This document shows, in pieces, positions 3-19,468 of a DNA stretch of 64,000 bases. Every line of letters starts with the position of its first letter. Within the stretch, counting starts at the first letter, position 1. This stretch comes from an uncultured Clostridiaceae bacterium (GTDB lineage: Bacteria; Bacillota; Clostridia; Saccharofermentanales; UBA5734), in assembly GCA_942493365.1 (NCBI GenBank), contig OW818697.1, positions 418,634-482,633 on the forward strand, given 5' to 3'. Position numbers and translations under genes: made by a program. The notes under the pieces are model-generated. The model made no database searches. It saw only the letters and a program-made list of their open reading frames with translations, and was not told where the DNA came from.

Positions 3-560
3 GTTCGTGAGCTGATCCGTCAAGGGCAGAAGAACCTGACCATTACATCGAATGATACCGGCCGTCCCGGCGTAGCGGTATTCGACCTGGTCAACGAAGG
101 ACGCGTCACCGGTGTCAACGCCACCTACATTGGCTTCAACCCGGAAACCGGCCGCATGATGATGGAGAACCCCGGCTCGGTCTGCCTCTATCCGCAGGGT
201 ACGCTGGCTGAAAAAATTCGCGCCGGCGGCTACGGTCTCGGCGGCATCCTGACGCCCACTGGTGTTGGCACCATCGTCGAAGAGGGTAAACAAAAAATCA
301 GCGTTGGCGGCAAGGACTACCTGCTCGAAGTGGCTATGCGCGCCGATGTCGCCATGATCCGCGCCCATGTCGCTGACGAAGCCGGCAACCTGGTCATTCG
401 CGGCACAGCCAAAAACTTCAACGTCGTTATGGCCGGCGCTGCCGATTATGTCATCGCCGAAGTCGATGAAATTGTGCCCTTTGGCTCGCTCGACCCCGAA
501 ACCATCACCATCCCCAGCCTCTTGATCCATGCCATCGTCAAAGGAGGGTCCGCCCAATGA
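3..560 (+). CDS. CoA-transferase subunit A (3-oxoacid/acetate CoA-transferase family), 5' end outside window
   Basis: The frame is open from the window edge. 'GTLAEKIRAGGYGLGGILTPTGVGT...IRGTAKNFN' is typical of family I CoA-transferase alpha subunits. The stop overlaps the subunit B start in an ATGA. Confidence 0.85.
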   Translation, partial: VRELIRQGQKNLTITSNDTGRPGVAVFDLVNEGRVTGVNATYIGFNPETGRMMMENPGSVCLYPQGTLAEKIRAGGYGLGGILTPTGVGTIVEEGKQKISVGGKDYLLEVAMRADVAMIRAHVADEAGNLVIRGTAKNFNVVMAGAADYVIAEVDEIVPFGSLDPETITIPSLLIHAIVKGGSAQ

Positions 561-1216
561 ACAGTCGTGAGATTATCGCCAAACGCGTGGCCCTGGAATT
601 CAAAGACGGCGATGTCGTCAATCTCGGCATCGGCATCCCCACCCTTGCTTCCAACTACCTGCCCGAGGGCGTCCACATTATGATCCAATCCGAAAACGGC
701 ATGCTCGGCATGGGTCCGGCCGCCGCCCCAGAAGCCGCATCCAATGACCTGACCGATGCCGGCGGCAATCCTGTTACCATCGTTCCCGGTGGCATGTTCT
801 TCGACAGCGCCACCTCGTTTGGCCTTATCCGCGGCGGCCACGTCGACGAAACCGTACTCGGCGCGCTCGAAGTCGACCAGTACGGCAATTTGGCCAACTG
901 GATGATCCCTGGCAAGAAAGTTCCCGGCATGGGCGGCGCGATGGACCTCGTCTGCGGTGCCCGCAAAGTGATCGTGGCTATGGAGCACATCAACAAGGAC
1001 GGCTCGGCCAAAATCCTCGACAAATGCCGTCTGCCGCTGACCGCCGCCAACAAGGTCAATCTGATCATCACCAACATGGCCGTGATCAAGATCAAAAAAG
1101 AGGGCGGCCTGGTCCTGCAGGAATTGGCGCCTGACGTCACCGTCGAAGAAGTCATCGCCGGCACCGACGCCAAACTGGAAATATCACCCGACCTGAAAGT
1201 CATGCCGATTGTCTGA
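557..1216 (+). CDS. CoA-transferase subunit B
   Basis: 'VVNLGIGIPT...QSENGMLGMGP...GGAMDLV' is the beta-subunit signature, including the SENG catalytic Glu region. It is translationally coupled to subunit A. Confidence 0.9.
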   Translation: MNSREIIAKRVALEFKDGDVVNLGIGIPTLASNYLPEGVHIMIQSENGMLGMGPAAAPEAASNDLTDAGGNPVTIVPGGMFFDSATSFGLIRGGHVDETVLGALEVDQYGNLANWMIPGKKVPGMGGAMDLVCGARKVIVAMEHINKDGSAKILDKCRLPLTAANKVNLIITNMAVIKIKKEGGLVLQELAPDVTVEEVIAGTDAKLEISPDLKVMPIV

Positions 1217-1250
1217 GACTATCACATGACCCATTTATTTCTAAATACCT

Positions 1251-2375
1251 ATGGAGGAAACATCAGTGACAAAAACCTACAAAATCTTTACCATCAACCC
1301 CGGCTCAACTTCGACCAAGATTGCGCTGTTCGAAAACGACAACCGCGTCTTTGCCGTCAACGTCTCGCATGACGCGGCGGAACTGGCCAAGTTCACTGAA
1401 ATCAGCGATCAGTTTGACTACCGCAAAGACACCATCCTCAGCGAACTGGCCAAACAGAATGTCACGCTGGATGGCACCGATGCCTTCGTCGGCCGCGGCG
1501 GCGGGCTGGTCGGTCTTGAGGGTGGCACCTACACCGTCAACGACATTTTGTACAACCACGCCAAGGTCGGTTTCACGATCAAGCACCCGGCCACACTGGG
1601 CAGCCAGCTGGCGCGGTACTTTTCACAACAGTACGGCGGCATCGCGCTGGTCGTCAATCCGCCGGACGTTGATGAGTTGCAACTGGTTGCCCGCGTCACC
1701 GGCATTGCCAACGTCACCCGCGAAAGTCGCGGCCATCCGCTCAACCAGAAGGAAATCGGTATCCGCTATGCCAGTTCGATCGGCAAGCGATACGAGGACC
1801 TCAACCTGATTATATCGCACATCGGCGGCGGCGTCTCGATAACGGCCCACCAAAAGGGCCGCATGATCGACACTAACGACGTTGTCAACGGCGACGGCCC
1901 GATGGCGCCGACCCGCGTCGGCTCCATCCCTTGTAAAGACATCATCAACATGTGCTTCTCGGGTGAATACACCAAAAAGCAGATGATGGATTACCTGACC
2001 AAAAACGGCGGCATCGTCGATCACCTCGGCACCTCCGACGCCCGCGAAGTCCGAGCGATGATCGACAAGGGTGACAAATACGCTGAGCTGGTTTACGATG
2101 CCATGATCTATCAGATCGGCAAATTTATCGGCGCCTATGCCGCCGTCATGCACGGCAAAGTGGACGCCATCATCCTGACCGGTGGCATTGCCAACGATAC
2201 CTACCTGACATCCAAGGTGACCGAAATGGTCAGTTTCATCGCCCCGGTCAAAGTCATGCCGGGCGAATTCGAGATGGAAGCTCTGGCCAGCGGTGCCCTC
2301 CGCGTCCTGAAGGGCGATGAACAGCCCAAAGAATATACCGGCATCCCGGTCTTCACCGGCTTCGACCGCGGCTGA
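1251..2375 (+). CDS. buk: butyrate (short-chain acyl) kinase
   Basis: The 374-aa product starts 'ILTINPGSTSTKIALFE'-like and carries 'ISHIGGGVSITAH' and 'ILTGGIA', the ASKHA fold motifs of butyrate kinases. Confidence 0.9.
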   Translation: MEETSVTKTYKIFTINPGSTSTKIALFENDNRVFAVNVSHDAAELAKFTEISDQFDYRKDTILSELAKQNVTLDGTDAFVGRGGGLVGLEGGTYTVNDILYNHAKVGFTIKHPATLGSQLARYFSQQYGGIALVVNPPDVDELQLVARVTGIANVTRESRGHPLNQKEIGIRYASSIGKRYEDLNLIISHIGGGVSITAHQKGRMIDTNDVVNGDGPMAPTRVGSIPCKDIINMCFSGEYTKKQMMDYLTKNGGIVDHLGTSDAREVRAMIDKGDKYAELVYDAMIYQIGKFIGAYAAVMHGKVDAIILTGGIANDTYLTSKVTEMVSFIAPVKVMPGEFEMEALASGALRVLKGDEQPKEYTGIPVFTGFDRG

Positions 2376-2464
2376 CCCCGAGCCGCCCAACCAACTGTTT
2401 AATCCCTTCCGGACAGCGCACCCCGCCGCCGGCAGGATTATAAAATGAAAGGAGTCTTAAGAAC

Positions 2465-2704
2465 ATGAAAGAAGAAATACTGGCCATGATTATCGAGAAG
2501 GCCGCCAGCATCTACCAGCTCGACCCCGCAACCTTGAGTGCGGCTACCCGCTTTAATGAGGATTACAATGCCAAGTCGATGGATTTGGTCAAAATCATTG
2601 GCGTCCTTGAGGACGAATTCGGCCTCGACATCAACTTTATGGAATTTCGTCGCAAACTGACCTTCGGCGAAGCTGCCGATTATGTCACCGGCCTGGCCGA
2701 ATAA
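2465..2704 (+). CDS. acyl carrier protein-like, stand-alone
   Basis: The 79-aa acidic helical protein has 'AKSMDLVKIIGVLEDEFGL', matching the ACP 'DSLD..EL....EEEF' phosphopantetheine-Ser region. An AAAGGAG ribosome-binding site lies upstream. Confidence 0.7.
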   Translation: MKEEILAMIIEKAASIYQLDPATLSAATRFNEDYNAKSMDLVKIIGVLEDEFGLDINFMEFRRKLTFGEAADYVTGLAE

Positions 2705-2719
2705 GGGGAGGAAAAATTA

Positions 2720-4486
2720 ATGACGCTGACAAAAGAAATGGTCCTGAGCATGAAAGCCGAACGTATCACCAAAATCAAAAAGTTCGGCGATGAAGAGATC
2801 GAATGTGTCTATCGCAAATGCAGAAAACCGCTGACCAAGGAAGAACTTTCCAAGATGAGCGGCACAGCGACGGATTTCTTTGGTTTTTGCCCGGAGTTCA
2901 ACCAGCGCACCTACATTGCCGAAGACGGCATCATCTGTGACCAGGACGTCGCCGTGAAACTGCGCGATGGCACGACGATTTACACCGACATTTTCCGCCC
3001 GCAGAACGCGACCGGCAAGGTCCCCTGCATCGTTTCCTGGAGCCCCTTCGGCAAACGTCCGGGTGACGGCATGGACGAATGGAAAATCATGGGCGTCCCG
3101 CCCCAGACCGTTTCCAACATGGCCAAATTCGAATCGGTTGACCCGGCCTACTGGTGCCGTCAAGGTTACGCGGTCGCCAATGTTGACCCGCGCGGCATCG
3201 GCCATTCCGAAGGCGATCATGAACTGTTCGGCGGCCAGGATGGCCGTGACGGCTACGATTTCATCGAATGGCTCGCGACCCAGGATTGGTGCGGCAAAAT
3301 CGGCATGTGCGGCAACTCCGGCGTCGCCATGGTTCACTGGCGTATCGCCGCCGAACAGCCGCCGAACCTGGTCTGTATCGCTCCGTGGGAAGGCACCGCT
3401 GACATGTACCGCGAATCCACCTACGAAGGCGGCATCCCGGCCTTTGGCTTCCCCGAATTCATCGCCGGCTCGGTTACCGGTGAAAACTACATCGACGACA
3501 TGGTTCTGATGGCCGTTAAATATCCGAAAATGAACGGCTACTGGGAAGACAAAGCACCAAAAATGGAAAAAATCAAAATCCCCGTTTATGCCACGGCCTG
3601 CTGGAACCACTTCCACCTGCGCGGCGCATGGGATGGCTTCCGCAAGGTCCGTTCGGCCAAAAAGTGGATGCGCGCCCATCGCGAATTTGAGTGGCCGGAT
3701 GCCTACTGCACCGAAGGCCTCGAAGATCTCAAGCGCTTCTATGATCGCTATCTGAAGGATATCCGCAACGGCTGGGAGCTGACCCCGAAAATTCGCATCG
3801 AAGTTCAGGATGCCTACGACTTCGATTTCCAAAAAGCCCGTCCGGAGAAAGAATGGCCGATTGCCCGCACCGATTACCGCAAGCTATACATGGATGCCGC
3901 TTCGGCTTCGATGGCCTATAACACCTGCGCCAAGGAGTCTAAAGTCAGCTATGATGCCGCAACCGGACTGACCACCTTCGACGTTAAGTTCACTGAAGAC
4001 ACCGAAATTACCGGCTACATGAAGCTGCACATGTTTGTTGAAGCCATTGGCAATGATGACATGGACTTCTTTATCAACGTTCAGAAGCTCGACGAGCAAG
4101 GCAACTGGCTGCCGGTCAGCGTGCTCGGCGAACCCCATCCGGGTGCCTGGGGCAAAATGCGTGTCTCAGCGCGCGAGCTGGATACCAAACTGTCCACCGA
4201 TTACCGCCCGATCCAGAAACACACCAGCGAACTCAAGCTCACAGCTGGCGAAATCGTGCCGGTTGACATTGAGATTTGGCCGACCAGCCGCCTCTGGCAC
4301 AAAGGCCAGCAGCTGCGCCTGCAGATTGCCGGTCATTACATTCGCGAGGGCTGGTTCGAACGCCTGGAATGGGACACCAACAACAAGGGCCAGCACGTTA
4401 TCCACACGGGCGGGCAATTTGAGTCTTATCTGCAGATCCCGGTCATTCCGCCGCGTTACGTTGCCGGCGACTACGTTTACCGATAA
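2720..4486 (+). CDS. CocE/NonD family (S15 X-Pro dipeptidyl-peptidase-like) hydrolase
   Basis: The 588-aa product has 'GYAVANVDPRGIGHSEG', 'DGYDFIEWLATQDWCGKIGMCGNSGVAM' and a C-terminal beta-sandwich-like region, as in CocE/NonD esterases and amidases. Confidence 0.8.
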   Translation: MTLTKEMVLSMKAERITKIKKFGDEEIECVYRKCRKPLTKEELSKMSGTATDFFGFCPEFNQRTYIAEDGIICDQDVAVKLRDGTTIYTDIFRPQNATGKVPCIVSWSPFGKRPGDGMDEWKIMGVPPQTVSNMAKFESVDPAYWCRQGYAVANVDPRGIGHSEGDHELFGGQDGRDGYDFIEWLATQDWCGKIGMCGNSGVAMVHWRIAAEQPPNLVCIAPWEGTADMYRESTYEGGIPAFGFPEFIAGSVTGENYIDDMVLMAVKYPKMNGYWEDKAPKMEKIKIPVYATACWNHFHLRGAWDGFRKVRSAKKWMRAHREFEWPDAYCTEGLEDLKRFYDRYLKDIRNGWELTPKIRIEVQDAYDFDFQKARPEKEWPIARTDYRKLYMDAASASMAYNTCAKESKVSYDAATGLTTFDVKFTEDTEITGYMKLHMFVEAIGNDDMDFFINVQKLDEQGNWLPVSVLGEPHPGAWGKMRVSARELDTKLSTDYRPIQKHTSELKLTAGEIVPVDIEIWPTSRLWHKGQQLRLQIAGHYIREGWFERLEWDTNNKGQHVIHTGGQFESYLQIPVIPPRYVAGDYVYR

Positions 4487-4495
4487 GTGATGTGG

Positions 4496-4548
4496 GAAGA
4501 GTGAAGCGTCCGGGATGATTTCCGCAGCGCTTCACTCTTCACTCTTTT
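4496..4548 (+). terminator. rho-independent terminator or attenuator after the hydrolase gene
   Basis: A 13-bp perfect stem pairs GAAGAGTGAAGCG (4496-4508) with CGCTTCACTCTTC (4528-4540). It is followed by ACTCTTTT. Confidence 0.65.
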
Positions 4549-4582
4549 ACGACCTCAACCATGAGCTACTACTGGAGGATTA

Positions 4583-5899
4583 ATGAAGAATTTGAAAAGA
4601 CAGGGCTGGATCGTTTTAGCGACCGCGACCGGCATCAATTTTCTGGCGGGTCTGCTTTACATCTGGAGTGTCATCAAAACCGGTCTCAAAAATGATTTGG
4701 GATGGAATGATATGCAGGCCACACTGCCGTACACGGTTGCCATCGTTGCCTTTGTCTGCACCATGGTTGGTATTGGCAAACTGCAGGACATCAAAGGTCC
4801 ACGCCTGACAGCCACCTTGTCTGGAATCTTGATGGGTTCCGGATTAATACTTTCCAGTCTGCACACTGACCCAACCCTGATGATCATCACCTTTGGCGTG
4901 ATAACCGGCGCCGGTTGCGGCATCAGCAATGTTTCGACTGTACCCCCGGCTGTCAAATGGTTTTCCCCAACGAAGAAGGGCATGGTCACCGGCGTCGTCG
5001 TTGCCGGTGTCGCCTTGGCCTCTGTTTTCTACTCACCCTTCACCCACACCTTGATCGGCACCAAAGAAAATCCCAGTCTGGGTCTTTCGGGAACATTTCT
5101 GGTCATGGGCATCGGCATCCTGATTTTGACGGTTTTCTTTGCCCAATTTTTGAAAAATCCACCGATCGGTTTTGACGCAGCCACATCAACCATCGCTGAT
5201 GCGGGACATGCTACAGCGGCGATAGAAGCAGAGAAGGTAAAAAACTTTGGCGCTGACCTCAATTGGATGCAACTGCTCAAGCGACTGGACTTTTATAAAT
5301 TGTGGATCATGTTCGCCTTTGCTTCTGCCGCCGGCTTATTTGTCATCGGCAACGTCATGCAAATAGCTGCCGGTCAATCCGGCATGATCAAGGCGGATAT
5401 TGACAAATATTCTTTCTTACTGGTCATTTTACTGGCCATCTTTAATGCCATCGGTCGCTTTCTGGGTGGTTCCCTGGCCGACAAAATACATCATTATACG
5501 TTGCTGAGCATTATCTTTGCCGTCGCTGCAACCAACATAGCGCTCTTTTCTGTCTACAACAACATCGTTCTGGTCAGCATCGGAATTGCTGTTGCAGGTC
5601 TCTGCTACGGCGCCGGATTTGCTGCCTTCCCGACGATCATGGTCAGTAATTACGGGGTAAAAAATTACGGTTCGAACTACGGCATAATTATGACAGCCTG
5701 GGGCGTTGGCAGCATTATCGGTCCGATGGTCGCGGCAGCAATTCGCGATTCTTCCGGCACCTATACTGCGGCCTATTTCTTTTGCTGCGCCCTGTTGGTT
5801 ATTGCCCTGTTGATCGCACTTGCAACCCGATTCGGAAAAAAAGAGAACTGCTGCAACTACCAAATGAAGACCAGCATTACAAGTTGCCCACTGGAGTGA
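4583..5899 (+). CDS. MFS transporter (oxalate/formate antiporter-like subfamily)
   Basis: The 438-aa product has about 12 hydrophobic helices. The N-terminal 'GLLYIWSV...LGW' pattern is typical of OFA-type MFS proteins. Confidence 0.75.
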   Translation: MKNLKRQGWIVLATATGINFLAGLLYIWSVIKTGLKNDLGWNDMQATLPYTVAIVAFVCTMVGIGKLQDIKGPRLTATLSGILMGSGLILSSLHTDPTLMIITFGVITGAGCGISNVSTVPPAVKWFSPTKKGMVTGVVVAGVALASVFYSPFTHTLIGTKENPSLGLSGTFLVMGIGILILTVFFAQFLKNPPIGFDAATSTIADAGHATAAIEAEKVKNFGADLNWMQLLKRLDFYKLWIMFAFASAAGLFVIGNVMQIAAGQSGMIKADIDKYSFLLVILLAIFNAIGRFLGGSLADKIHHYTLLSIIFAVAATNIALFSVYNNIVLVSIGIAVAGLCYGAGFAAFPTIMVSNYGVKNYGSNYGIIMTAWGVGSIIGPMVAAAIRDSSGTYTAAYFFCCALLVIALLIALATRFGKKENCCNYQMKTSITSCPLE

Positions 5900-5903
5900 A
5901 AAA

Positions 5904-8012
5904 ATGGAAAACATTAAACTGACAATCGATGGAAAGAGCATCTCCGCCGAACCAGGCCAATCGGTCATGCAGGCGGCGCTGGCTGCCAGCATCTACATTC
6001 CGCACCTGTGTTCACATGACGATTTGGTGCCCGCGGGGGCCTGTCGTCTGTGCGTCGTGGAGATTGAGGGGATGTCGGAAGCAGTGACCTCGTGCTCGAC
6101 GGCGGCGGTGGATGGCATGGTGGTCATCACCAGGTCTGAACGCCTGAAGAAAATGCGCCGTCTGGCCGGCGAGCTTCTGCTGGCACCGCACCCTTCAGAT
6201 TGCACGTCCTGCCCCAAGTATCTGAAGTGTGAACTGCAGGCGCTGATTCAGTATCTGGAAATCAGTGATCAGCGTATCCGCAAACGCGCCAACAACGTCG
6301 CACCCAATGTCGACAATCCACTGGTCATTCATGACATGTTCCGTTGCATTCTTTGCGGCCGCTGCATACGCGCCTGCGGCGAACTGCGCGGCATCGAAGC
6401 CATCACCTTCAAAGAGGTTGACGGCCGCGTCCGCGTGATGCCCACCCAGGGCACGCTGGCCGACTCGGGCTGCAAATTTTGCGGGGCCTGCATTGAGGTT
6501 TGCCCGACGGGCTCGATCGTCGATCAGATCGGCGTGGTCAAAACCGACCGCACCAAGGCCGACTATCTCGTGCCCTGCCGCTACACCTGCCCCGCCAGCA
6601 TCGACATCCCGCGCTACATTCGCTTGGTCAAGGAAGGCAAACCGGCCGAGGCCAATGCCGTCATTCGCGAAAAAGTGCCCTTTCCCGGCGTTTTGGGCCA
6701 CATCTGCAACCACCTTTGTGAAAACGATTGCCGCCGCGGCCAGGTCAACGAGGCCATTGCCATCAAAGAACTCAAGCGCTTTGCTTTTGAGAACGATGAC
6801 GGGCAGTGGCGCGAGCGCTCTTTCAAAAAAGCCGCCACCGGCCGCAAAATTGCCATCATCGGTTCAGGCCCGGCCGGCCTGACCGCCGCCTATTATCTGG
6901 CCAAACTTGGCCATGGTGTGACGATTTTCGAAGCCCTGGCCCAGGCCGGCGGCATGATGCGCGTCGGTATCCCGCGCCATCGCTTGCCTGCTGCGGTGCT
7001 GGACGGCGAAATTGACATCGTCCGCGAAGCCGGTGTCGAAATTCGCACCAATGCCAAAGTCGAGTCGGCGCCGGAACTGCTCAAGCAAGGCTTTGAAGCC
7101 GTCCTGGCCGCGCCGGGTGCCCATCAGGGCATCAAAATGCCCATGCCGGGCGCTGATCTTGAGGGCATTCTTATCAACACAACCTTCCTGCGTCAGGTCG
7201 CACTGGGTGAACCGGTCAAGATTGGCGCCAACGTCGTCGTCCTGGGCGGCGGCAACGTTGCCTTTGACTGCGCCGGCGCTGCTCGCCGACTGGGCGCCAA
7301 GCAAGTTACCGTGCTTTGTCTGGAATCGCGAGAGGAAATGAAAGCCAGTCCCGAAGAAATCGAAGAGGCCATGGAAGAGGGCGCCACTGTGCACCCGTCG
7401 ATCTCCTTTACCGGCATTACGGGCGAAAACGGCCATGTCACCGGCGTACAGTGCAGCAAGGTCTGCACCTTCCACTTCGACGAACAAGGCCGCGCTGTCA
7501 TCGTTTGCGAAGTCGGCTCCGAGCACATCATCCCTGCTGACACCATTATCTTTGCTGTCGGTCAGCGCCCCGATCTCAGCGAACAATTTGGCTTGCCTCT
7601 GGGTCGCGGCAACCGTATCACGTCTGACAACAAGGCCATGACCACCCTGGTTGACGGTGTCTTTGCCGCTGGCGATGCGGTCTATGGCACGCTGTCGGTC
7701 ATCGAGGCCATTGCAGCCGGCCGCCGCGCCGCCACCGCCATTGATACCTTCTTGGGTGGTGAAGGCAAAATCGACGAAGAACTGGCCCCGCCGACGCCGA
7801 TGAATCCGTGGTTTGGCCGTGAAGAACAATTTGCCGCCAAGCCGCGCTGCCAGTCGGCCAGCCTGCCGGTTGATCAACGCGATCTGAGCAGCGAAGTCGA
7901 TATGGGCTATACCCCCGGCGAAGCCTGCACCGAATCAGAACGCTGCCTGCAGTGCGATCAGCGGCTGGGCATTTCCAGACAAAAATTCTGGAACGAATAT
8001 GACGTGCGATGA
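5904..8012 (+). CDS. multi-cluster Fe-S flavoprotein: NuoG/HydA-like 2Fe-2S plus 4Fe-4S N-terminus fused to GltD/NfnB-like NAD(P)H FAD oxidoreductase
   Basis: The N-terminus has 'CRLCVVEIEG', 'HPSDCTSCPKYLKC' and two CxxCxxCxxxCP motifs. It continues with the GltD-type 'CENDCRR' and 'KIAIIGSGPAGLTAAYYLA'. Confidence 0.75.
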   Translation: MENIKLTIDGKSISAEPGQSVMQAALAASIYIPHLCSHDDLVPAGACRLCVVEIEGMSEAVTSCSTAAVDGMVVITRSERLKKMRRLAGELLLAPHPSDCTSCPKYLKCELQALIQYLEISDQRIRKRANNVAPNVDNPLVIHDMFRCILCGRCIRACGELRGIEAITFKEVDGRVRVMPTQGTLADSGCKFCGACIEVCPTGSIVDQIGVVKTDRTKADYLVPCRYTCPASIDIPRYIRLVKEGKPAEANAVIREKVPFPGVLGHICNHLCENDCRRGQVNEAIAIKELKRFAFENDDGQWRERSFKKAATGRKIAIIGSGPAGLTAAYYLAKLGHGVTIFEALAQAGGMMRVGIPRHRLPAAVLDGEIDIVREAGVEIRTNAKVESAPELLKQGFEAVLAAPGAHQGIKMPMPGADLEGILINTTFLRQVALGEPVKIGANVVVLGGGNVAFDCAGAARRLGAKQVTVLCLESREEMKASPEEIEEAMEEGATVHPSISFTGITGENGHVTGVQCSKVCTFHFDEQGRAVIVCEVGSEHIIPADTIIFAVGQRPDLSEQFGLPLGRGNRITSDNKAMTTLVDGVFAAGDAVYGTLSVIEAIAAGRRAATAIDTFLGGEGKIDEELAPPTPMNPWFGREEQFAAKPRCQSASLPVDQRDLSSEVDMGYTPGEACTESERCLQCDQRLGISRQKFWNEYDVR

Positions 8013-8025
8013 AAGGCGGCCAGTG

Positions 8026-9534
8026 ATGAATATGCAATGGATCAAAACATCCTACCCCCAGGTCATGCTGACCGGCGACAACCAAACCGTCAGCGGCAAT
8101 TTCAGCGCACTGCGCAAAGTCCTGGCCGGCGACGGTGCGGCCGCGCTTGCCGCGCTTGCTGCGTCCGGTTTGCGCGGCCGTAGCGGCATCGCGCGCCCTG
8201 TTGCGGAAAAATGGCAGCTATGCGCAGCCCAGCCTACCGGACCCAAAATCGTCATCATGAACACCATCGACGGCGATGTCGGCATGCCGGCCGCAGCGAC
8301 GCTGTTGGCCATTGACCCGGTTTCAGCCATCGAAGGGCTGATCATCACCGGCTATGCAGTCGGCGCGCAACAGGGCTACCTATATGTTGACCAAACCAAC
8401 GCTGAGCAGTTGGCCAGCTTGCAAGCGACCGTGAAAAGCATGACAACAGCCGGCGTTCTGGGTGAAAACATTTTGGGTTCGAAGTTCAATTTCAATCTGG
8501 AAATTGCTGCCCGCCCGGCCAAATTCGTCTGTCGCGAAGACACGGCGCTGATCGCCGGTCTGTCCGGCCACCCGGTCATGTCCGGCCTGACGACACCCAT
8601 GCCGGCCGAGAAGGGCTACAAGGGTCTGCCGACCGTCGCGCACCACGCCGAAACGCTGGCGCAGATTGCAGCGTTTTTTCGCCAAGAAAAACCCGCGCAG
8701 ACCAAGCTGTTCTCACTGATCGGTGATATTCAGAACAACGGTCTGATGGAACTACCTCTGGGCAGTAATTTGCGAACCATAATCGAAGAAATCGGCATCG
8801 TTCCCGAAGGAAAAACCATCAAGTTTGTTCAGGTGGGCGGACCCAACGGCTCCATTTTGACCGGCGACGAGCTTGACATCGCACTCGACTTCGCCAACTT
8901 CGAGGCGACCGGCCGCAATCTCGGCACCGGCAGCATCGTTGTACGCAACACCGACGCCTGTGTGGTCGACTACATTAAGACCAACACCGATCTGATGAAC
9001 AAAGCCGCCTGCGGCAAATGTGTCATGGGCCGTGAGGGCTCCTGGCAGCTCAAGGAATTCATCCACGATTCGACCATCGGCAAAAGCAAAAATGACGACC
9101 TCGACATGATGCAGGAACTCTGCCAAGGTATGAGCGAAGGCGCCATGTGCTCGGTCTGCCGCTCGGCCGGTGCTGCATTTTTATCGGCGCTGGAGCGTTT
9201 CGGCAGTGAATTCGAGCAACACATGAAACGCAAGAAGTGTCAAACACTGGTCTGCAGCAAGTATGTCACCTTCCATATTCTGCCCGACAAATGCACCGGC
9301 TGCACCGATTGCCTGAACAAGTGTCCGGTCTCGGCCATCGAAGGCGAAAAGGGCTACATTCACGTCATCGATGAAGACACCTGCAACCAATGCGGCATTT
9401 GCGAGACGATCTGCAAACCCAACGCCGACGCCATCGTGCGGGCCGGCGCCATCAAACCGCAGACCCCGGACGAGCCGATTCCGGTCGGCACCTTCAAAAA
9501 GAAGCCCGGAATGGGCGGCGCGCGGCGGTTTTAA
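8026..9534 (+). CDS. NuoF/HydB-like (Complex I 51 kDa family) Fe-S protein with C-terminal 2x[4Fe-4S] ferredoxin domain
   Basis: It has 'GLRGRSG...EKW', 'CREDTALIAGLSG', 'CGKCVMGREG' and C-terminal 'CTGCTDCLNKCP...CNQCGICETIC'. The ORF opens at 7999, but the ATG at 8026 has an AAAGGCGG ribosome-binding site. The FMN-loop motif is divergent. Confidence 0.7.
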   Translation: MNMQWIKTSYPQVMLTGDNQTVSGNFSALRKVLAGDGAAALAALAASGLRGRSGIARPVAEKWQLCAAQPTGPKIVIMNTIDGDVGMPAAATLLAIDPVSAIEGLIITGYAVGAQQGYLYVDQTNAEQLASLQATVKSMTTAGVLGENILGSKFNFNLEIAARPAKFVCREDTALIAGLSGHPVMSGLTTPMPAEKGYKGLPTVAHHAETLAQIAAFFRQEKPAQTKLFSLIGDIQNNGLMELPLGSNLRTIIEEIGIVPEGKTIKFVQVGGPNGSILTGDELDIALDFANFEATGRNLGTGSIVVRNTDACVVDYIKTNTDLMNKAACGKCVMGREGSWQLKEFIHDSTIGKSKNDDLDMMQELCQGMSEGAMCSVCRSAGAAFLSALERFGSEFEQHMKRKKCQTLVCSKYVTFHILPDKCTGCTDCLNKCPVSAIEGEKGYIHVIDEDTCNQCGICETICKPNADAIVRAGAIKPQTPDEPIPVGTFKKKPGMGGARRF

Positions 9535-9621
9535 ACCCTGAAACCAGTTGACTACGGGAGTGTCCCGTTGAAAAATGATCCCTAGCCAAAAATTATCGAT
9601 TATTTTAAGGAGGAAACGATC

Positions 9622-9975
9622 ATGATCAAACGTGAACTCAAAGAATGCAAGCCCTACGACCCGCCCAAGCACTTCAAAATGTGCGCCATTCGTCTGCAAG
9701 GCAAAGAAGAATCCGGCGCCGAAAAATTCTGGATGGGCATGTCGCACTTCCTGCCCGGCGGCGGCGCGGAGTATGACTACGAAGTCAGTCCGACCGAAAA
9801 GATCTATTTCGTCAAATCTGGCGAGGTGACCGTTTACACCAAGGACGACGCCGAAAAGATCGTGCTGCGCGAAAACGATTCTCTGTTCATCGGACCCAAT
9901 CAGGGACGCAGACTGATCAACGAATCCAATCTGCCGGCAACCGTCCTGGTCGTCGTCAATTACCCCAACACCTGA
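9622..9975 (+). CDS. cupin domain protein
   Basis: The 117-aa product has a 'G.E..H.H...E..Y...G'-like beta-barrel pattern ('PGGGAEYDYEVSPTEKIYFVKSGEV'). A strong AAGGAGG ribosome-binding site lies upstream. Confidence 0.6.
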   Translation: MIKRELKECKPYDPPKHFKMCAIRLQGKEESGAEKFWMGMSHFLPGGGAEYDYEVSPTEKIYFVKSGEVTVYTKDDAEKIVLRENDSLFIGPNQGRRLINESNLPATVLVVVNYPNT

Positions 9976-9994
9976 TCACAGGAGGATAAGAAAA

Positions 9995-10783
9995 ATGGTA
10001 GATGTCAAAAAAGAAACTGTGCAAAACATGTTTGGACTGGCCGGCAAAGTGGCGCTGGTCACCGGCGCATCCGGTGCGCTGGGCAGCGCAATCGCCAAAG
10101 GCTACGGCTTCCAGGGCGTCAAGGTCATGATGACCGCCCGCAACGAAGCCAAGATGAAGGAGCTCTACGATGAGTTCACCGCCGAAGGCATCGAGTGCGC
10201 CTACGTCGCCGGCGACCCGGCTGTCGAAGAAGATGTCAAGCGCATCGTCGAAGCCACCGTCGCCAAGTACGGCGAAATCAATATTCTCTGCACCGCGGCC
10301 GGCCTCAGCAAGCCCGGCTCGATCCTCAAGCAGTCGACGGAAGAATGGCAGTCCATGCAGGATGCCAACGTCCGCGGCACGTATCTGATGACCAAATACA
10401 CCGCTTTTGAAATGGTCAAACAAGGCAAAGGCGGCAAGATGGTCCTGGTTTCTTCGGCCCGCTCCAAGCGCGGCATGAAGGGGTACACCGGCTACAGCCC
10501 CTCCAAGGCTGCCGTTGATCTGCTGGCCCAGTCCCTGGCCTGTGACCTCGGCGAATACCACATCAACGTCAACACCTTCAACCCGACCGTGTTCCGATCC
10601 GACCTGACCGAGTGGATGTTCCATGACGACAACGTCTATCAGAACTTCCTCAAGCGCCTGCCGATCGGCCGCTTGGGAGAGCCCAACGATTTCGTCGGCA
10701 TCGCATCTTTCCTGGCCTCAGACGCAGCCAACTTCATCACCGCGGCCAACATCGCGGCTGATGGCGGATATTGGGGGAATTAA
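9995..10783 (+). CDS. SDR family oxidoreductase
   Basis: It has the 'VALVTGASGALG' Rossmann motif, 'NILCTAAG' and the catalytic 'YSPSKAAV' (YxxxK). Confidence 0.85.
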   Translation: MVDVKKETVQNMFGLAGKVALVTGASGALGSAIAKGYGFQGVKVMMTARNEAKMKELYDEFTAEGIECAYVAGDPAVEEDVKRIVEATVAKYGEINILCTAAGLSKPGSILKQSTEEWQSMQDANVRGTYLMTKYTAFEMVKQGKGGKMVLVSSARSKRGMKGYTGYSPSKAAVDLLAQSLACDLGEYHINVNTFNPTVFRSDLTEWMFHDDNVYQNFLKRLPIGRLGEPNDFVGIASFLASDAANFITAANIAADGGYWGN

Positions 10784-10785
10784 GC

Positions 10786-11718
10786 ATGAAAACGATCAAG
10801 AACGTCACCATTATCGGCAACGGCCTGATGGGCTGCGGCTGCGCCCTGGTGTTTGCCAGAAATCCTGAGTTTGATGTCACCATCAAATACCGTTCCGGCA
10901 CCGCGGACATGATCTATGACAAAATCCGCGGCTTCCTGGTTCCGCTGGTCAACAAGGGTGTCTACACCCAAGATGAAGCCGACACCATCGTTGGCCGCGT
11001 CAAGACCGAGACTGATCTGGCCGCGTCGGTCAAAGACGCCGACCTGGTTATGGAGTGCATTGCAGAGAACATGACCCTCAAACAGGACCAGTTCGCTGCG
11101 CTAGAACCGCTGACCCGCCCGGACACTATTTATGCGACCAACACCTCGGTCATGAGCATCACGGCCATTGCCTCTAAGACGGTCAAAAAGGATCGCGTTG
11201 TCGGAACCCACTTCTGGAATCCGCCCTATCTGATTCCGCTGGTTGAAGTCGTCAAGGCTTTCGAGACCTCCGACGAAACCATGGATCTGACCCTCGACGC
11301 TCTGCTGCGCGCCGGCAAAAAAGCTGTTCGCTGCAACAAAGACGTACCGGGATTCATCGCCAATCGTATGCAGCACGCCCTCTGGCGCGAAGCCATTTCC
11401 ATCGTCGCACACGGCATCGCCGATGCCGCCACGGTCGACGAAGCCGTTCGCAACAGTTTTGGCCTGCGCTTGCCGGTCCTTGGCCCGATGGAGAATTCGG
11501 ACATGGTCGGCACCGACCTAACCCTCTCCATCCACGAATACATGCTGCAGCACCTCGAAAATGATCCGACCCCCTCGCCGCTGCTCTTAGAAAAAGTCGC
11601 CGCCGGCGATCTCGGCTTCAAGAGCGGCAAAGGCTTCCAGGAGTGGGACGCGGATTCGATTGCTGCCTCACGCCGCAAGCTGAGCGAACATCTGATCAAA
11701 ATGCTGTATAACAAATAA
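10786..11718 (+). CDS. 3-hydroxyacyl-CoA dehydrogenase family protein
   Basis: It has 'VTIIGNGLMGCG', 'TNTSVMSIT', 'HFWNPPYLIPLVEV' and 'DVPGFIANR', the Hbd/HADH signature blocks. The ORF opens at a TTG at 10771, but the ATG at 10786 follows GGGGGA. Confidence 0.85.
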   Translation: MKTIKNVTIIGNGLMGCGCALVFARNPEFDVTIKYRSGTADMIYDKIRGFLVPLVNKGVYTQDEADTIVGRVKTETDLAASVKDADLVMECIAENMTLKQDQFAALEPLTRPDTIYATNTSVMSITAIASKTVKKDRVVGTHFWNPPYLIPLVEVVKAFETSDETMDLTLDALLRAGKKAVRCNKDVPGFIANRMQHALWREAISIVAHGIADAATVDEAVRNSFGLRLPVLGPMENSDMVGTDLTLSIHEYMLQHLENDPTPSPLLLEKVAAGDLGFKSGKGFQEWDADSIAASRRKLSEHLIKMLYNK

Positions 11719-11750
11719 TCAGTCGAAACTTTTCAGGAGGAACTATAATC

Positions 11751-12701
11751 ATGGGCAAAAAAGTATTTGTTGACCTAACCCACCCCTTCAGCGCGGAGAT
11801 CCCCCGCTGGCCCTATTTTGACAAACCGATCATCGACAGTGCGCACACCATGGCCAAAGGTGGCGTACTGACCCAGAAAATCACCTGCACCATGCACACT
11901 GGCACCCACTGCGATGCCCCCCGACACGTCATGGAAAAAGAATTTGACGGCCGCAGAGCCCGCTACACTCACGAAATGGCTGTCGATGCCTACACCGGCG
12001 ATGCCGTCTGCCTGCCGATCGAAATCGGGCGCTGGGGTCTGATCGGTCCTGAGCACCTCGAAGCGGCCTGCAAAAAAGTCGGCATTAAGCCGAGCGAACT
12101 GGAAGGCATGATCGTATGCCTGAACACCGGTATGCACCGCCAGTTTGACGACTCCAAAGATTATTACCACTATTCATGCGGTACCGGCATCGAAGCCGGA
12201 CGTTGGTTTCTCAAGCACAAGGTCAAGTGCGTCGCGGTCGACTCGCAGGCGCTGGATCATCCGCTGCACACTGCCATGGGCAATAACGGCATGACCCGTA
12301 TGAACCTGATCGGCGCCACCGGCCGGACAATCTGCGAAGAATACATCGAGCAGTTCGGCATCGAAGCCTACGCTGAATTCGACCGTGAGACCTACATCAA
12401 AGTTCATGGTCAGGCCGCATATGACAAAAAATTCGGCGATCTGGAAGCCATCGGCTGCTGGGGCACCTGGGAACCCATGCACAAGCTGCTGCTGGGCAAT
12501 GGTATCGTTGGCGTCGAAAATCTGGGCGGTGATCTGGACAAGGTATCCGGCAAACGTTTCCGCTTCAATTGTTTCCCGCTGCGCTGGTATCTCGGCGACG
12601 GCTCCATGGCGCGTTGCGTTGCTGAAATCGACGAGGATGACCTGAATGATGTCCCAGACAGAAAGTACAAATATGGCGGTTTCGGACCCAACGAAGACTA
12701 A
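11751..12701 (+). CDS. cyclase family protein (kynurenine-formamidase-like metal hydrolase fold)
   Basis: '[11 protein letters not shown]' matches the HxGTHxDxPxH motif of the putative cyclase family. Confidence 0.75.
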
Positions 12702-12714
12702 AGGAGATTTCACA

Positions 12715-13896
12715 ATGAAAGAAGTTGTCATCGTTTCGGCGGCACGTACGCCGATCGGTTGCTTCGGCGGATCCCTTGCAGCATTCAGCGCTGTTGAACT
12801 CGGCGCGCAAACAGCCATTGAGGTCATCAAACGTGCCGGCATTGCGCCGGAAGCGATTGACGAAGTCGTTCTCGGCGGTGTCCTGACTGCCGCGCAAGGC
12901 CAAAATATCGCTCGCCAGGTGGCGATCAAGGCCGGCTTGCCGGATACCACGCCCGCCATGACCTTGAACATCGTCTGCGGCTCCGGCCTGCGCGCAATCA
13001 GCCTGGCTGCCCAGATGATCAGGTCCGGCGAAGCCGAGGTTATCCTGGCTGGCGGCATGGAAAGCATGACCAACGCGGTCTACGCCCTGAAAAAGGCACG
13101 TTACGGCTATCGCATGGGCAATGACCAGATTATCGACACCATGGTCAACGATGGTTTGTGGGATGCCTTCAACGACTACCACATGGGCACAACGGCGGAA
13201 AACATTGCCGAAGAGTGGCAGATCACTCGCGAAGAACAAGACGCTTTCGCCGCCACCAGCCAGCAGCGGGCTGTCGCGGCCATCGAAGCCGGTTACTTCA
13301 AAGACGAGATCATGCCGGTCCCGATTCCGCAGAAAAAGGGCGATCCTGTGATGTTCGACACCGACGAATATCCCCGCGCCGGCACCACAGCCGAAACCCT
13401 GTCCAAACTCAAACCCGCCTTCAAAAAAGACGGCACCGTGACCGCCGGCAATGCGTCCGGCATTAACGACGGCGCCGCCATGCTGATCGTCATGTCCCGC
13501 GAAAAGGCCGATGCACTCGGCCTCAAGTCGATGGCTAAAATTGTCGGCATCGGCACCGGTGGCGTTGATCCCAGGATAATGGGCTACGGGCCGGTTCCCG
13601 CAACGAAAAAAGCCCTGGCTATGGCCGGTCTGACCGTCAAGGACCTGGACCTGATCGAAGCTAATGAAGCTTTCGCGGCTCAGTCAATCGCAGTTGCCCG
13701 CGACCTCGGCCTCGATCTGGCTAAAACCAATGTCTCCGGCGGTGCCATCGCACTCGGCCATCCGATTGGCGCGTCCGGCGCTCGCATTGCCACCACCCTG
13801 CTCTATGGCATGCAACGAACCAAGTCTCGTTATGGCCTGGCCACGCTGTGCATCGGCGGCGGCATGGGCACCGCCATCATCTTCGAACGAGTCTAA
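12715..13896 (+). CDS. acetyl-CoA C-acetyltransferase (thiolase II)
   Basis: It starts '[15 protein letters not shown]' and carries '[10 protein letters not shown]' (active-site Cys), '[10 protein letters not shown]' and 'CIGGGMG'. The ATG at 12715 follows AAGGAG; the longer ORF from 12646 overlaps the upstream gene. Confidence 0.92.
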
Positions 13897-13926
13897 AGAC
13901 TCAAAAACAGAAAGGAAGTATCCAAA

Positions 13927-14769
13927 ATGGTAGATCTGACAAACAAAGTTATCCTGACCGTTGCCCCGACCGGCGCCTGGCCCCAAAAAACCGATACACC
14001 GTACATTCCGACCCAACCGCGCGAAATCGCTGACGAGGTCATCGCCTGCGCCAAAGCCGGCGCCTCAATCGCCCACATTCATGTCCGCGACGACAACGAC
14101 AAATCATCGATGGATTACAACAAATTCACCGAAACCGTCAAGTACATTCGCGAAGCCAAATGCGACATCGTGCTTAACCTGACTACTTCTGGCAAGCTGG
14201 GACTTCAGGGCGCCGAGCGCTATCAGCACGTCATCGATCTCAAGCCTGAAATGTGCTCCTATGACTGCGGCTCCATGAACTGGATGCACAGCTCGGTCTT
14301 TGAAAACAGCCCGCCCTTCCTCGAGGAACTCGGTACAGTTCTGATCGAAAACAATGTCAAACCGGAAATCGAAATCTTTGACGGCGGCATGATTTACAAT
14401 GCTCAATATTACCTGAAAAAGGGCTTTCTCAAAGGCCCTCTGCACTACCAATTTGTTTTGGGCGCAGCTGGCGGTATGGACGCCACCGTCGAAAACCTGG
14501 TCTTTCTCAAGAGCCTGATCCCGCCTGGATCCACTTGGAGCGCCATGGGTATCGGCAAGGGCCATATGCCGATTCTTTATACTGCGCTGGCCATGGGCGG
14601 CCACATCCGCGTCGGTATGGAAGACAACATCGTCTACAGCAAGGGCGTTCTGGCCACCTCCAACATGCAGTTCGTTGAGCGCAGCAAGCGCATCATCCAT
14701 GAGTTCAACAAGCAAGTTGCCACGCCGGACGAAGCTCGTATGATCCTCGGTCTGATCCCCAACGTTTAA
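13927..14769 (+). CDS. BKACE family beta-keto acid cleavage enzyme (DUF849; 3-keto-5-aminohexanoate cleavage enzyme-like)
   Basis: The 280-aa product has 'ILTVAPTGAW...PYIP..P.EIA.E...C..AGASI.HIHVRD', which is characteristic of Kce/BKACE TIM-barrel enzymes. Confidence 0.85.
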   Translation: MVDLTNKVILTVAPTGAWPQKTDTPYIPTQPREIADEVIACAKAGASIAHIHVRDDNDKSSMDYNKFTETVKYIREAKCDIVLNLTTSGKLGLQGAERYQHVIDLKPEMCSYDCGSMNWMHSSVFENSPPFLEELGTVLIENNVKPEIEIFDGGMIYNAQYYLKKGFLKGPLHYQFVLGAAGGMDATVENLVFLKSLIPPGSTWSAMGIGKGHMPILYTALAMGGHIRVGMEDNIVYSKGVLATSNMQFVERSKRIIHEFNKQVATPDEARMILGLIPNV

Positions 14770-14795
14770 TCACGGCCTGACATCTGACACCAAAA

Positions 14796-14833
14796 GGGCC
14801 AATGACCTGGCAATTCAGGCCGTTGGCCCTTTT
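14796..14833 (+). terminator. rho-independent terminator after the BKACE gene
   Basis: GGGCCAA (14796-14802) pairs with TTGGCCC (14823-14829), with an inner CCTG/CAGG pairing. A TTTT run follows. Confidence 0.6.
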
Positions 14834-14852
14834 CGCGGAGTAGCGGCAATTT

Positions 14853-14861
14853 TGCTATAAT
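14853..14861 (+). promoter_or_regulatory. extended -10 promoter element (TGcTATAAT) upstream of acpS-pta
   Basis: TGCTATAAT lies at 14853-14861, directly after the terminator. No good -35 element is present. Confidence 0.4.
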
Positions 14862-14906
14862 AGTTGCAGAGGCTAGAGCCAATCCATGAGGAGGCAACGA
14901 GCAATC

Positions 14907-15293
14907 ATGATTACGGGTGTTGGCACCGATATTCTCAAAATTGATCGACTCCGCAACGACCAAGCAAGTCTGACGACTGGCTCGCCGTTCCTGACAAAAA
15001 CATTCACGACCGATGAATTGCATGCAGCCGCAGAGCGCGCCGACCCCACACGCTATCTGGCCACACGATTTGCCGGCAAAGAGGCGGTCTTCAAAGCTCT
15101 AGGCACCGGTGACGGGCTGATTCGTCTCAATGAAATTGAAATCCTTAACGACGACAACGGTCAGCCCAATGTGACATTAAGCGGACGGGCGCGACTGGCC
15201 GCTGATGCGATGAGCGTCACCAATATCCAGATTTCGTTATCCCATGATACCGACTACGCAATTGCCTTTGCAATTATGCAAAACCAGGAATAA
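14907..15293 (+). CDS. acpS: holo-[acyl-carrier-protein] synthase (4'-phosphopantetheinyl transferase)
   Basis: It starts 'MITGVGTDILKIDR' and carries 'FAGKEAVFKALG' and 'ISLSHD', the AcpS hallmarks. An alternative upstream ATG lies at 14886. Confidence 0.78.
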   Translation: MITGVGTDILKIDRLRNDQASLTTGSPFLTKTFTTDELHAAAERADPTRYLATRFAGKEAVFKALGTGDGLIRLNEIEILNDDNGQPNVTLSGRARLAADAMSVTNIQISLSHDTDYAIAFAIMQNQE

Positions 15294-15307
15294 CAGGAGG
15301 AATCCCT

Positions 15308-19384: not shown

Positions 19385-19468
19385 TTTTCCTCCATAACAA
19401 AGTTTTTGATATATTCTATATCGTGACAAAAAGCAGGATTATTACAGCAATATATTCAGATCGCTATT

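Follow-up and report, generated by a model that had tools for sequence, protein, structure and literature searches.

Why does a gene cluster for the degradation of organic compounds carry an acyl carrier protein (ACP) of its own? The question is raised by a stretch of 64,000 nucleotides from an uncultured Clostridiaceae bacterium (contig OW818697.1 of assembly GCA_942493365.1, positions 418,634 to 482,633 of the forward strand; hereafter the window, with positions counted from its first nucleotide), in which a small ACP gene is located among catabolic enzymes. A preliminary description of the sequence had treated this ACP as an orphan. We found that it is not an orphan: it is the hub of a five-gene cassette, and four genes travel with it across 64 loci, namely those encoding a holo-ACP synthase (AcpS), a CocE/NonD hydrolase, a phosphotransacylase-like protein (Pta-like) and a butyrate-kinase-like protein (Buk-like). 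The last two had been overlooked, although the Pta-like gene is always beside the dedicated AcpS gene and the Buk-like gene is just upstream of the ACP gene. We propose, with a probability of roughly 0.45, that in this cassette an acyl-enzyme loads the ACP, the Pta-like protein makes an acyl phosphate from the loaded carrier and the kinase makes ATP, all without coenzyme A (CoA). In the window, the five genes are:

1251-2375, forward strand: butyrate-kinase-family paralogue, the cassette kinase, directly upstream of the ACP gene (TIGR02707)
2465-2704, forward strand: ACP of 79 aa with Ser38 in AKSMD (PF00550), of a "basic" ACP family outside fatty-acid synthesis (FAS)
2720-4486, forward strand: CocE/NonD (peptidase S15) alpha/beta hydrolase with the putative nucleophile Ser200 in GNSG (PF02129, PF08530)
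14907-15293, forward strand: dedicated AcpS, the second AcpS of the genome (PF01648, TIGR00516)
15308-16303, forward strand: Pta-like phosphotransacylase of a cassette-specific clade (PF01515, PTA_PTB, 313.7 bits)

The ACP gene is the hub of a conserved cassette

Relatives of the ACP were collected by scanning metagenomes with a widened alignment of the family, and 80 of the 243 found were kept; a narrow alignment, run over the genome collection, yielded 7 loci only, its patterns being too specific. After removal of ordinary fab-cluster ACPs (the weakest loci, L107 and L109-L131 except L111, L112 and L116), 64 genomic and metagenomic loci were taken as the ACP family. The three excepted loci, a fragment (L111) and two degenerate copies (L112 and L116), were not classed as fab-cluster ACPs.

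The gene set was found to be more constant than its arrangement. The order Buk-like, ACP, hydrolase was observed in the related genomes; a Buk-like gene lies upstream of the ACP gene in all Saccharofermentans-type loci and is present in 40 of the 64 loci. Elsewhere, the orders AcpS-Pta-Buk-ACP-hydrolase, AcpS-ACP-hydrolase-Pta-Buk, ACP-hydrolase-AcpS-Pta-Buk, ACP-hydrolase-Pta-Buk-AcpS and ACP-reductase-hydrolase-Pta-Buk were found, and the occurrence of at least five gene orders speaks for selection that keeps the genes together, and against a synteny that was merely inherited. A second locus of genome G007 is an independent instance of the cassette, accompanied by NfnAB-like genes, a LysR regulator and a TRAP transporter, and in G407, which belongs to a different Clostridia family, an ACP-hydrolase-Pta row has genes for an aldehyde:ferredoxin oxidoreductase, a FAD reductase and an enoate reductase as its neighbors.

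The closest companion of the ACP gene is the hydrolase gene, which begins after a gap of 15 nt in the window. Among the 48 loci with enough downstream sequence, the two are adjacent in 44: the hydrolase start lies at most 700 nt from the ACP start in 43, and they are adjacent in L047 too. In three further loci, an enoate-reductase gene alone is located between them. The preliminary description had named both this directly adjoining hydrolase and the BKACE enzyme of the window as possible partners of the ACP, and co-occurrence separates the two: the CocE/NonD hydrolase is upheld, and BKACE, present in 3 of the 64 cassette loci within the available sequence, is ruled out.

The carrier protein is distinct from that of fatty-acid synthesis

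The ACP matches PF00550 (PP-binding) over residues 9-74 with 25 bits (cut-off 20.8). When the profile of its family was compared with solved structures, ACPs were matched, 1X3O being the best (E 2.4e-11), and Lys37-Ser38 aligns on the Asp-Ser attachment site of that structure; Ser38 is invariant across 28 family members. A Shine-Dalgarno sequence, AAAGGAG, is located 10 nt upstream of the ATG, and orthologues occur at 60-84% identity in other genomes. These orthologues, together with the 64 loci that carry family members, show that the ORF is a conserved gene and not a chance ORF, a point on which the earlier claim of a stand-alone 79-aa ACP with its Ser in an AKS motif had been left to depend and which turned out in its favor.

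The protein is not the acpP equivalog of FAS, since no NCBIfam cut-off for acpP is reached (39.2 vs 66). The Asp-Ser-Leu motif and the acidic helix II of FAS-type ACPs are both missing, with AKS(M/V)(D/N) replacing ADSLD. Cassette ACPs as a group follow the pattern (A/G/M)KS(V/M)(N/D), with the acids of helix II lost, then (N/P)(F/Y)MEFRRKKT, so that the helix-III region has a basic MEFRRKK where FAS-type ACPs have DEEAE(K/R). The canonical acidic acpP of the same genome adjoins rnc and reads ADSLDIVELV...IPDEEAERIKT. The helix II surface of ACPs is what FAS enzymes and the housekeeping AcpS recognize. As judged from these residues, the charge of this recognition surface is reversed in the cassette ACP, which would insulate it from FAS. 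One family member, the ACP of G407, keeps VDSLD, and its genome has a single AcpS; this exception fits the reading of a private ACP, because DSLD is kept where there is only one AcpS.

The genome of the window encodes two more carrier domains (767,836-769,391 and 1,198,711-1,200,519), both accompanied by an AMP-binding enzyme: a 95-aa carrier beside an adenylating enzyme, and an A-domain/carrier fusion. Neither is related to the cassette.

A second holo-ACP synthase accompanies the carrier protein

The AcpS of the cassette scored 59.9 bits against PF01648 (cut-off 25) and 82.2 against TIGR00516 (cut-off 59.8). Its start was placed at ATG 14907 rather than at ATG 14886, because GAGGAGG precedes the former and the N-termini of homologues (MI.G.GTD) agree with it. 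That this gene might simply be the only housekeeping acpS of the genome, as the preliminary description had allowed, does not hold: another acpS is located at genome positions 74,758-75,135, beside DnaB_2 and DnaI-like replication genes.

We compared 61 related genomes, that of the window included, in which an ACP orthologue was defined by at least 60% identity. An orthologue of the cassette AcpS was present in 7 of the 7 ACP-bearing genomes and in 0 of the 54 others, each of which has a single AcpS. The cassette AcpS is 41-61% identical among the six relatives, and a second AcpS is directly visible in five of these six; G001, which is 57% complete, showed the cassette type only. In a maximum-likelihood tree, a single branch (support 93/91) separates 31 cassette-linked AcpS sequences from 8 of the housekeeping type. 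The co-occurrence, the separate side of the tree and the housekeeping copy elsewhere support that the ACP has a dedicated AcpS, as had been claimed.

The same presence pattern in the related genomes is shown by the hydrolase and by the dihydrophloroglucinol cyclohydrolase (DPGC) of the neighboring pathway. As the whole island co-occurs, this comparison by itself ties the AcpS to the island and not specifically to the ACP, and the ACP-specific link comes from the wider set of loci. The AcpS and Pta-like genes are direct neighbors in the window as well as in G004, G028, G035, G005 and G007, and the pair is intact even at 20-28 kb from the ACP gene (G004 and G028).

The Pta-like protein has lost the arginines that bind CoA phosphates

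A Pfam scan of the Pta-like protein returned PTA_PTB alone, with the PlsX family not matched, and the protein falls below the NCBIfam equivalog cut-offs for Pta (TIGR00651, 268.9 vs 311.2; NF007233, 288.7 vs 310). In a survey of 399 sampled Clostridia genomes, proteins at least 49% identical to it were found only in the genome of the window, G407 and G113, with an ACP gene beside the Pta-like gene in all three, and every other Pta was at most 44% identical. A canonical Pta is also kept in these genomes (at most 44% identity in G407 and G113, 35% in that of the window), and the genome of the window has separate housekeeping pta and ptb-buk genes.

Residue comparisons were made between 26 cassette-linked Pta-like sequences and 20 canonical Ptas, with positions mapped by alignment to PDB 6IOW and numbered as in PgPta. 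In PgPta, acetyl-CoA is bound at its 3'-phosphate by Arg89 and at its beta-phosphate by Arg135 (PMC6461089); the MtPta equivalents are Arg87 and Arg133. These residues are replaced by Lys90 and Leu134 in the window protein, and Arg at the two positions was found in 0 of the 26 cassette members, compared with 20/20 and 19/20 of the canonical Ptas. The exception in the canonical set is the ACP-linked protein of G125 (L135/L155; 9978-10931 of L155), an intermediate type of 44% identity, linked to both ACP and AcpS, in which the Arg89 equivalent is kept and the Arg135 equivalent lost. In the 26 sequences, the RKxKG loop has two residues fewer. The catalytic Asp309, Ser311 and Arg312 are invariant in the cassette clade and in canonical Ptas, and Arg100 is invariant in the cassette clade only. 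Loss of the two arginines would be expected if the thiol substrate had no 3'-phospho-ADP part, that is, if it were a protein-bound phosphopantetheine, and falls short of proving this. A complex prediction for the Pta-like and ACP families gave a score of 0.13 (mark 0.32), which weighs neither for nor against binding.

The kinase partner is 40% identical to the two other buk genes of its genome. It matches the TIGR02707 equivalog with 431.7 bits (cut-off 289.1), and the idea that this acetate-kinase-like gene encodes an odd kinase was ruled out by its clear membership of the butyrate kinase family.

Such a score, the intact catalytic residues of the Pta-like protein and the acetate kinase and phosphate acetyltransferase genes included in published phloroglucinol clusters (PMC10470551) would all agree with separate roles, in which the Pta-like protein and the kinase turn acetyl-, acetoacetyl- or butyryl-CoA into ATP, and the ACP, AcpS and hydrolase form a two- or three-gene unit of their own in a shared regulon, for example for a carrier-tethered hydrolytic or editing step. 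This is quite improbable in view of how the genes are distributed. The Pta-like and Buk-like genes stay with the ACP and hydrolase genes in L072, L091 and L095, in which no phloroglucinol genes were found in flanks of up to 10 kb, and the AcpS gene constantly adjoins the Pta-like gene. Further, the Pta-like clade was restricted to ACP-bearing genomes in the survey, both nucleotide-phosphate-binding arginines are lost in it, and a canonical Pta is retained beside it.

Different putative acyl-enzymes accompany the same core

The hydrolase matches PF02129 (119.6 bits), PF08530 (PepX_C; 103.9 bits), TIGR00976 (202 bits) and PDB 3IB3 (308 bits). Conservation across 33 family members is at least 97% for Ser200 of the G-N-S-G motif and equally high for His299/His320 and Asp260/Asp327, which makes these four candidate residues of the triad. 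Extra hydrolase paralogues were observed beside the cassette in L026 (12168-13928), L052 (2454-4220), L079 (4899-6695), L081 and L082; they are either tandem copies, 76% identical, within the same genus, or a type of 39-43% identity upstream of the AcpS gene in loci from sediment. A single ACP may be served by several loaders that differ in substrate.

In two variants, a different enzyme is found in place of the hydrolase. The G113 locus (L134, G113:C74, 8818-13971) has no S15 hydrolase; an SCP-x-type thiolase-like gene and a DUF35 gene are located between the kinase and ACP genes, in a core of Buk-like, ACP, Pta-like (49%) and AcpS. In the G125 locus (L155, G125:C2, 9581-13004), a thiolase-like gene, a DUF35 gene, a 78-aa ACP-like ORF with an M-R-S motif, the Pta-like gene (44%) and an AcpS gene follow each other in a row. 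Solved relatives of the variant thiolase and DUF35 proteins include benzoylsuccinyl-CoA thiolase, archaeal thiolase/DUF35 and PhlC (E 2.6e-13). The thiolase/DUF35 pair is predicted to be a Cys acyl-enzyme that cleaves C-C bonds and replaces the Ser acyl-enzyme. That putative Ser and Cys acyl-enzymes are interchangeable before the same ACP/Pta/AcpS core points to placing an acyl group onto the ACP as their common role. The neighbors of the G113 variant (AP_endonuc_2, GFO_IDH_MocA, ROK and an ABC transporter) resemble sugar or inositol catabolism.

The same proteins might also work in the reverse direction. The kinase and the Pta-like protein would then spend ATP to convert a free carboxylic acid into acyl-ACP, and the hydrolase, or the thiolase/DUF35 pair, would be an acyltransferase, a condensing enzyme or a thioesterase that acts after a thioester-dependent step, such as that of the neighboring FadH-like enoate reductase. 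Kinase/phosphotransacylase pairs are reversible and activate acids in some anaerobes, as Ack/Pta does in Methanosarcina. The reductase between the ACP and hydrolase genes in three loci is an OYE/Fe-S enzyme of the 2,4-dienoyl-CoA reductase type; SCP-x thiolase/DUF35 pairs also condense, and both PhlC and an archaeal thiolase are among the PDB matches. We nevertheless regard this direction as unlikely, because no thioester-dependent enzyme is conserved with the cassette, in which only the hydrolase or thiolase is constant, because spending ATP on a thioester that is then hydrolyzed would be futile for a fermenter, and because the context is catabolic and fermentative throughout.

The cassette is associated with phloroglucinol and flavonoid catabolism

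All genes from 3 to 16303 in the window are co-directional. Besides the cassette, this part of the window and the sequence just upstream of it contain:

L132 17348-18283, just upstream of the window in the genome: LysR regulator
3-560, forward strand: CoA transferase subunit A (CtfA-like), its 5' end outside the window (PF01144, 156 bits)
557-1216, forward strand: CoA transferase subunit B (CtfB-like; PF01144, 159.5 bits)
4496-4540, forward strand: hairpin with a U-rich tract, a likely terminator after the hydrolase gene (minimum free energy -30.6 kcal/mol, z -4.9)
4583-5899, forward strand: MFS transporter (PF07690), its position conserved in related loci
5904-8012, forward strand: Fe-S flavoprotein, NuoG-N-terminal-like and GltD/NfnB-like (profile match), located by tblastn close to the cassette in 18 of the 64 loci
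7999-9534, forward strand: NuoF/HydB-like FMN Fe-S subunit (PF01512, PF10589)
9622-9975, forward strand: small cupin of 117 aa (PF07883), beside phloroglucinol genes in several lineages
9995-10783, forward strand: SDR in the position of phloroglucinol reductase (PGR; PF13561), with the cluster composition of PMC10470551
10771-11718, forward strand: 3-hydroxyacyl-CoA-dehydrogenase family protein in the TfD position (PF02737/PF00725)
11751-12701, forward strand: cyclase-family protein in the DPGC position (PF04199, 109.6 bits)
12646-13896, forward strand: thiolase, ORF as listed (PF00108, 360 bits)
13927-14769, forward strand: BKACE enzyme in the position of triacetate acetoacetate-lyase (TAL; PF05853, 355.5 bits)
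14792-14833, forward strand: hairpin with a U tract, terminator after the phloroglucinol genes (minimum free energy -27.8 kcal/mol, z -5.7)

The two strong hairpins with their U tracts divide the region into three probable units, ctfAB-buk-acp-hydrolase, the phloroglucinol core and acpS-pta. An extended -10-like box, TGCTATAAT, is located at about 14851-14859, before acpS-pta. The first 56 nt of the listed thiolase ORF (12646-12701) are shared with the end of the cyclase-family gene and the Pfam match of the ORF begins at residue 27, so that its real start is probably downstream. The cupin, which is outside the published four-enzyme pathway, is 53% identical in G249 and 63-74% in L064 and L083. 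A GGDEF-EAL membrane protein of 1046 aa with GAF and 7TM sensor domains (16289-19429, reverse strand) converges on the Pta-like gene with a 15-nt 3' overlap.

The quartet of SDR, cyclase, 3-hydroxyacyl-CoA dehydrogenase and BKACE enzymes, together with CtfAB, the thiolase, the transporter and the regulator, is predicted by family to constitute the anaerobic phloroglucinol pathway. The degradative setting that the preliminary description had given to the ACP is correct in that the cluster is catabolic; it is not an unknown route, as the pathway has been described (PMC10470551). Phloroglucinol genes were also observed in several other cassette loci (L064, L078, L083 and L087).

The ACP was found outside any FAS, polyketide synthase or nonribosomal peptide synthetase context, as had been stated. 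The accompanying claim that ketosynthase, acyltransferase, adenylating and condensation functions are all absent holds for the whole window as far as AMP-binding domains and true ketosynthases are concerned, for which nothing was found beyond a weak ketosynthase signal of the thiolase; for acyltransferase and condensation domains it holds for the first 20 kb only, in which Pfam scans found none, the remaining 44 kb not having been scanned for them. These results bear on whether the cassette is biosynthetic, making a small acylated metabolite or lipid from acyl-ACP with catabolic neighbors that are incidental. Stand-alone ACPs with dedicated phosphopantetheinyl transferases are indeed typical of secondary metabolism. 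No ketosynthase, adenylation, condensation or acyltransferase gene was found in the cluster of the window or in the cassette loci examined, however, and the neighbors are transporters, reductases and catabolic regulators, which makes a biosynthetic cassette hardly probable at all.

Families recurring near the cassette were counted in 62 clustered loci. FMN proteins of about 320 aa were found in 16, FAD_binding_2 reductases in 11, OYE/Fe-S enoate reductases in 9; of the Fe-S flavoprotein pair, one member was found in 14 loci and the other in 10. Transporters, URO-D-like proteins and regulators of the PucR and LysR types also recur. URO-D-like proteins, observed near cassettes in L067 (278-1576), L072 (16556-17794), L063 and L070, are of a type used as methyltransferases in O-demethylation, which hints at methoxylated aromatic substrates.

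Two of the FMN proteins, a cluster member from G004 and a G028 protein missed by the clustering, were searched against solved structures, and the flavone reductase FLR (PDB 7D38) was the sole match of both, with E values of 5.6e-35 and 1.7e-41. The PDB codes of FLR were confirmed in its publication, which states that NAD(P)H is not used by the enzyme and that the donor of its electrons is not known (PMC7862272). The genome of the window has an FLR-like homologue at 386,458-387,381, about 32 kb upstream of the window and 41% identical to the cluster-adjacent copy of a sister genome; another such homologue is encoded near 1,681,350-1,682,170. The Fe-S flavoprotein and NuoF-like pair (5904-9534) is without a NuoE partner and recurs beside the cassette and FLR homologues; it is a candidate electron-input module for FLR-type reductases or, alternatively, a supplier of NADPH for the SDR. 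All these indicate an accessory role of the cassette in the anaerobic catabolism of flavonoids and phloroglucinol.

A proposed route from acyl-ACP to ATP

From gene content, conservation, co-occurrence and residue patterns, we infer a series of reactions, their direction and their substrate. The dedicated AcpS would convert the non-acidic ACP to its holo form by phosphopantetheinylation. Ser200 of the hydrolase would attack an energy-rich acyl bond of a polyphenol-derived substrate, for which the candidates are an activated aryl ester and the C-C bond of a beta-di- or triketone, an acyl-(dihydro)phloroglucinol for instance. The acyl-enzyme would then be resolved by the ACP, through its phosphopantetheine thiol, and not by water; the Pta-like protein would phosphorolyze the acyl-ACP to an acyl phosphate, from which the kinase would make ATP. 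By analogy with thiolases, the C-C bonds of beta-diketones are energetic enough for such a transfer and simple alkyl esters are not. Intact aromatic acylphloroglucinols may lack enough energy, which makes it more likely that the substrate has a reduced ring or is activated in some other way. A fuller version, CoA-independent substrate-level phosphorylation on a carrier protein in which a C-C or C-O acyl bond of flavonoid-derived (dihydro)phloroglucinols is cleaved by the Ser hydrolase or, in the variants, by the thiolase/DUF35 pair and the acyl group is trapped on the private ACP, with one extra ATP gained where the known pathway hydrolyzes, is more doubtful and is offered tentatively.

Several points weigh against this route. 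Thioesters are acyl donors for the C-acylation of phloroglucinol-type rings, as by PhlACB, so cleavage of an aromatic acylphloroglucinol by a thiol may be energetically unfavorable if its ring has not first been reduced. To our knowledge, all CocE/NonD enzymes that have been characterized are simple esterases or amidases. The score of the kinase is that of an ordinary butyrate kinase, and in the 14 long loci (at least 5 kb upstream and at least 7 kb downstream) AcpS was seen in 6 and a Buk-like gene in 12. The phloroglucinol pathway is expected to end with a Pta and a kinase in any case (Fig. 8 legend, PMC10470551), and those of the cassette, as the only copies inside the cluster of the window, could still serve acyl-CoA. 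Moreover, PgPta mutated at Arg89 or Arg135 loses 58% or 21% of its activity, with 42% or 79% kept (PMC6461089), and with losses this mild the missing arginines do not prove that CoA use has been lost.

Comparison with known systems and implications

The reaction proposed for the Pta-like protein, acyl-ACP and phosphate to acyl phosphate and holo-ACP, is that of PlsX, which likewise uses a carrier-protein thioester and not CoA. The likeness is one of functional logic only: PlsX belongs to another family and feeds PlsY for lipid synthesis, with no kinase and no ATP. The Pta-Ack and Ptb-Buk systems have the same two enzyme families and the same Asp, Ser and Arg in the transacylase. They use CoA, whereas a dedicated ACP is proposed for the cassette, the Pta-like clade of which is without the arginines that hold CoA at its 3'- and beta-phosphates and does not reach the Pta cut-off. 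FabD and LuxD offer a precedent for the exchange of acyl groups between a Ser acyl-enzyme and an ACP, at the phosphopantetheine thiol of the latter; the hydrolase of the window differs in its fold subfamily, CocE/NonD with PepX_C, and in its proposed donor, a catabolic substrate and not acyl-CoA. Citrate lyase and malonate decarboxylase also have carrier proteins in catabolism, but with another prosthetic group and other installing enzymes, unlike the PP-binding type and AcpS-type transferase of the window.

Phloretin hydrolase (Phy), PhlG and PhlACB release or move acyl groups on the phloroglucinol ring, a pathway position that would suit the cassette. Phy and PhlG are hydrolases of another fold that conserve no energy, and PhlACB is carrier-independent. 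The phloretin hydrolase family PF18089 had no match in the genome of the window, but the control of this search gave no match either, so the negative carries no weight. The phloroglucinol cluster of Clostridium scatologenes (PGR, DPGC, TfD and TAL) shares its four families with the window, as well as CtfAB, a thiolase, an MFS transporter and a regulator, the likeness being one of families only; ACP, AcpS and CocE/NonD are unmentioned in its description (PMC10470551) and are additions in the lineage of the window and in many metagenomic loci. A limited literature search found nothing relevant on an ACP in phloroglucinol or flavonoid catabolism, or on substrate-level phosphorylation with a carrier protein. 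The parts are from known families; what is new is their combination, the orthogonal ACP and the Pta clade without the arginines.

The work defines three families that can be recognized by sequence, the basic "AKS" ACP, its AcpS and the Pta clade lacking the CoA-nucleotide arginines. For annotation, Pta-like, Buk-like and ACP genes in such clusters should not be taken as signs of ordinary acetate or butyrate formation or of FAS. If the proposed route is true, it would be a new form of energy conservation in fermentation, in which the path from thioester to acyl phosphate to ATP runs on a protein-bound thiol instead of CoA, and the ATP yield of anaerobic polyphenol degradation would be higher. 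Polyphenol degradation bears on carbon turnover in anoxic, polyphenol-rich sites (the "enzyme latch", PMC10470551) and on the metabolism of flavonoids in the gut.

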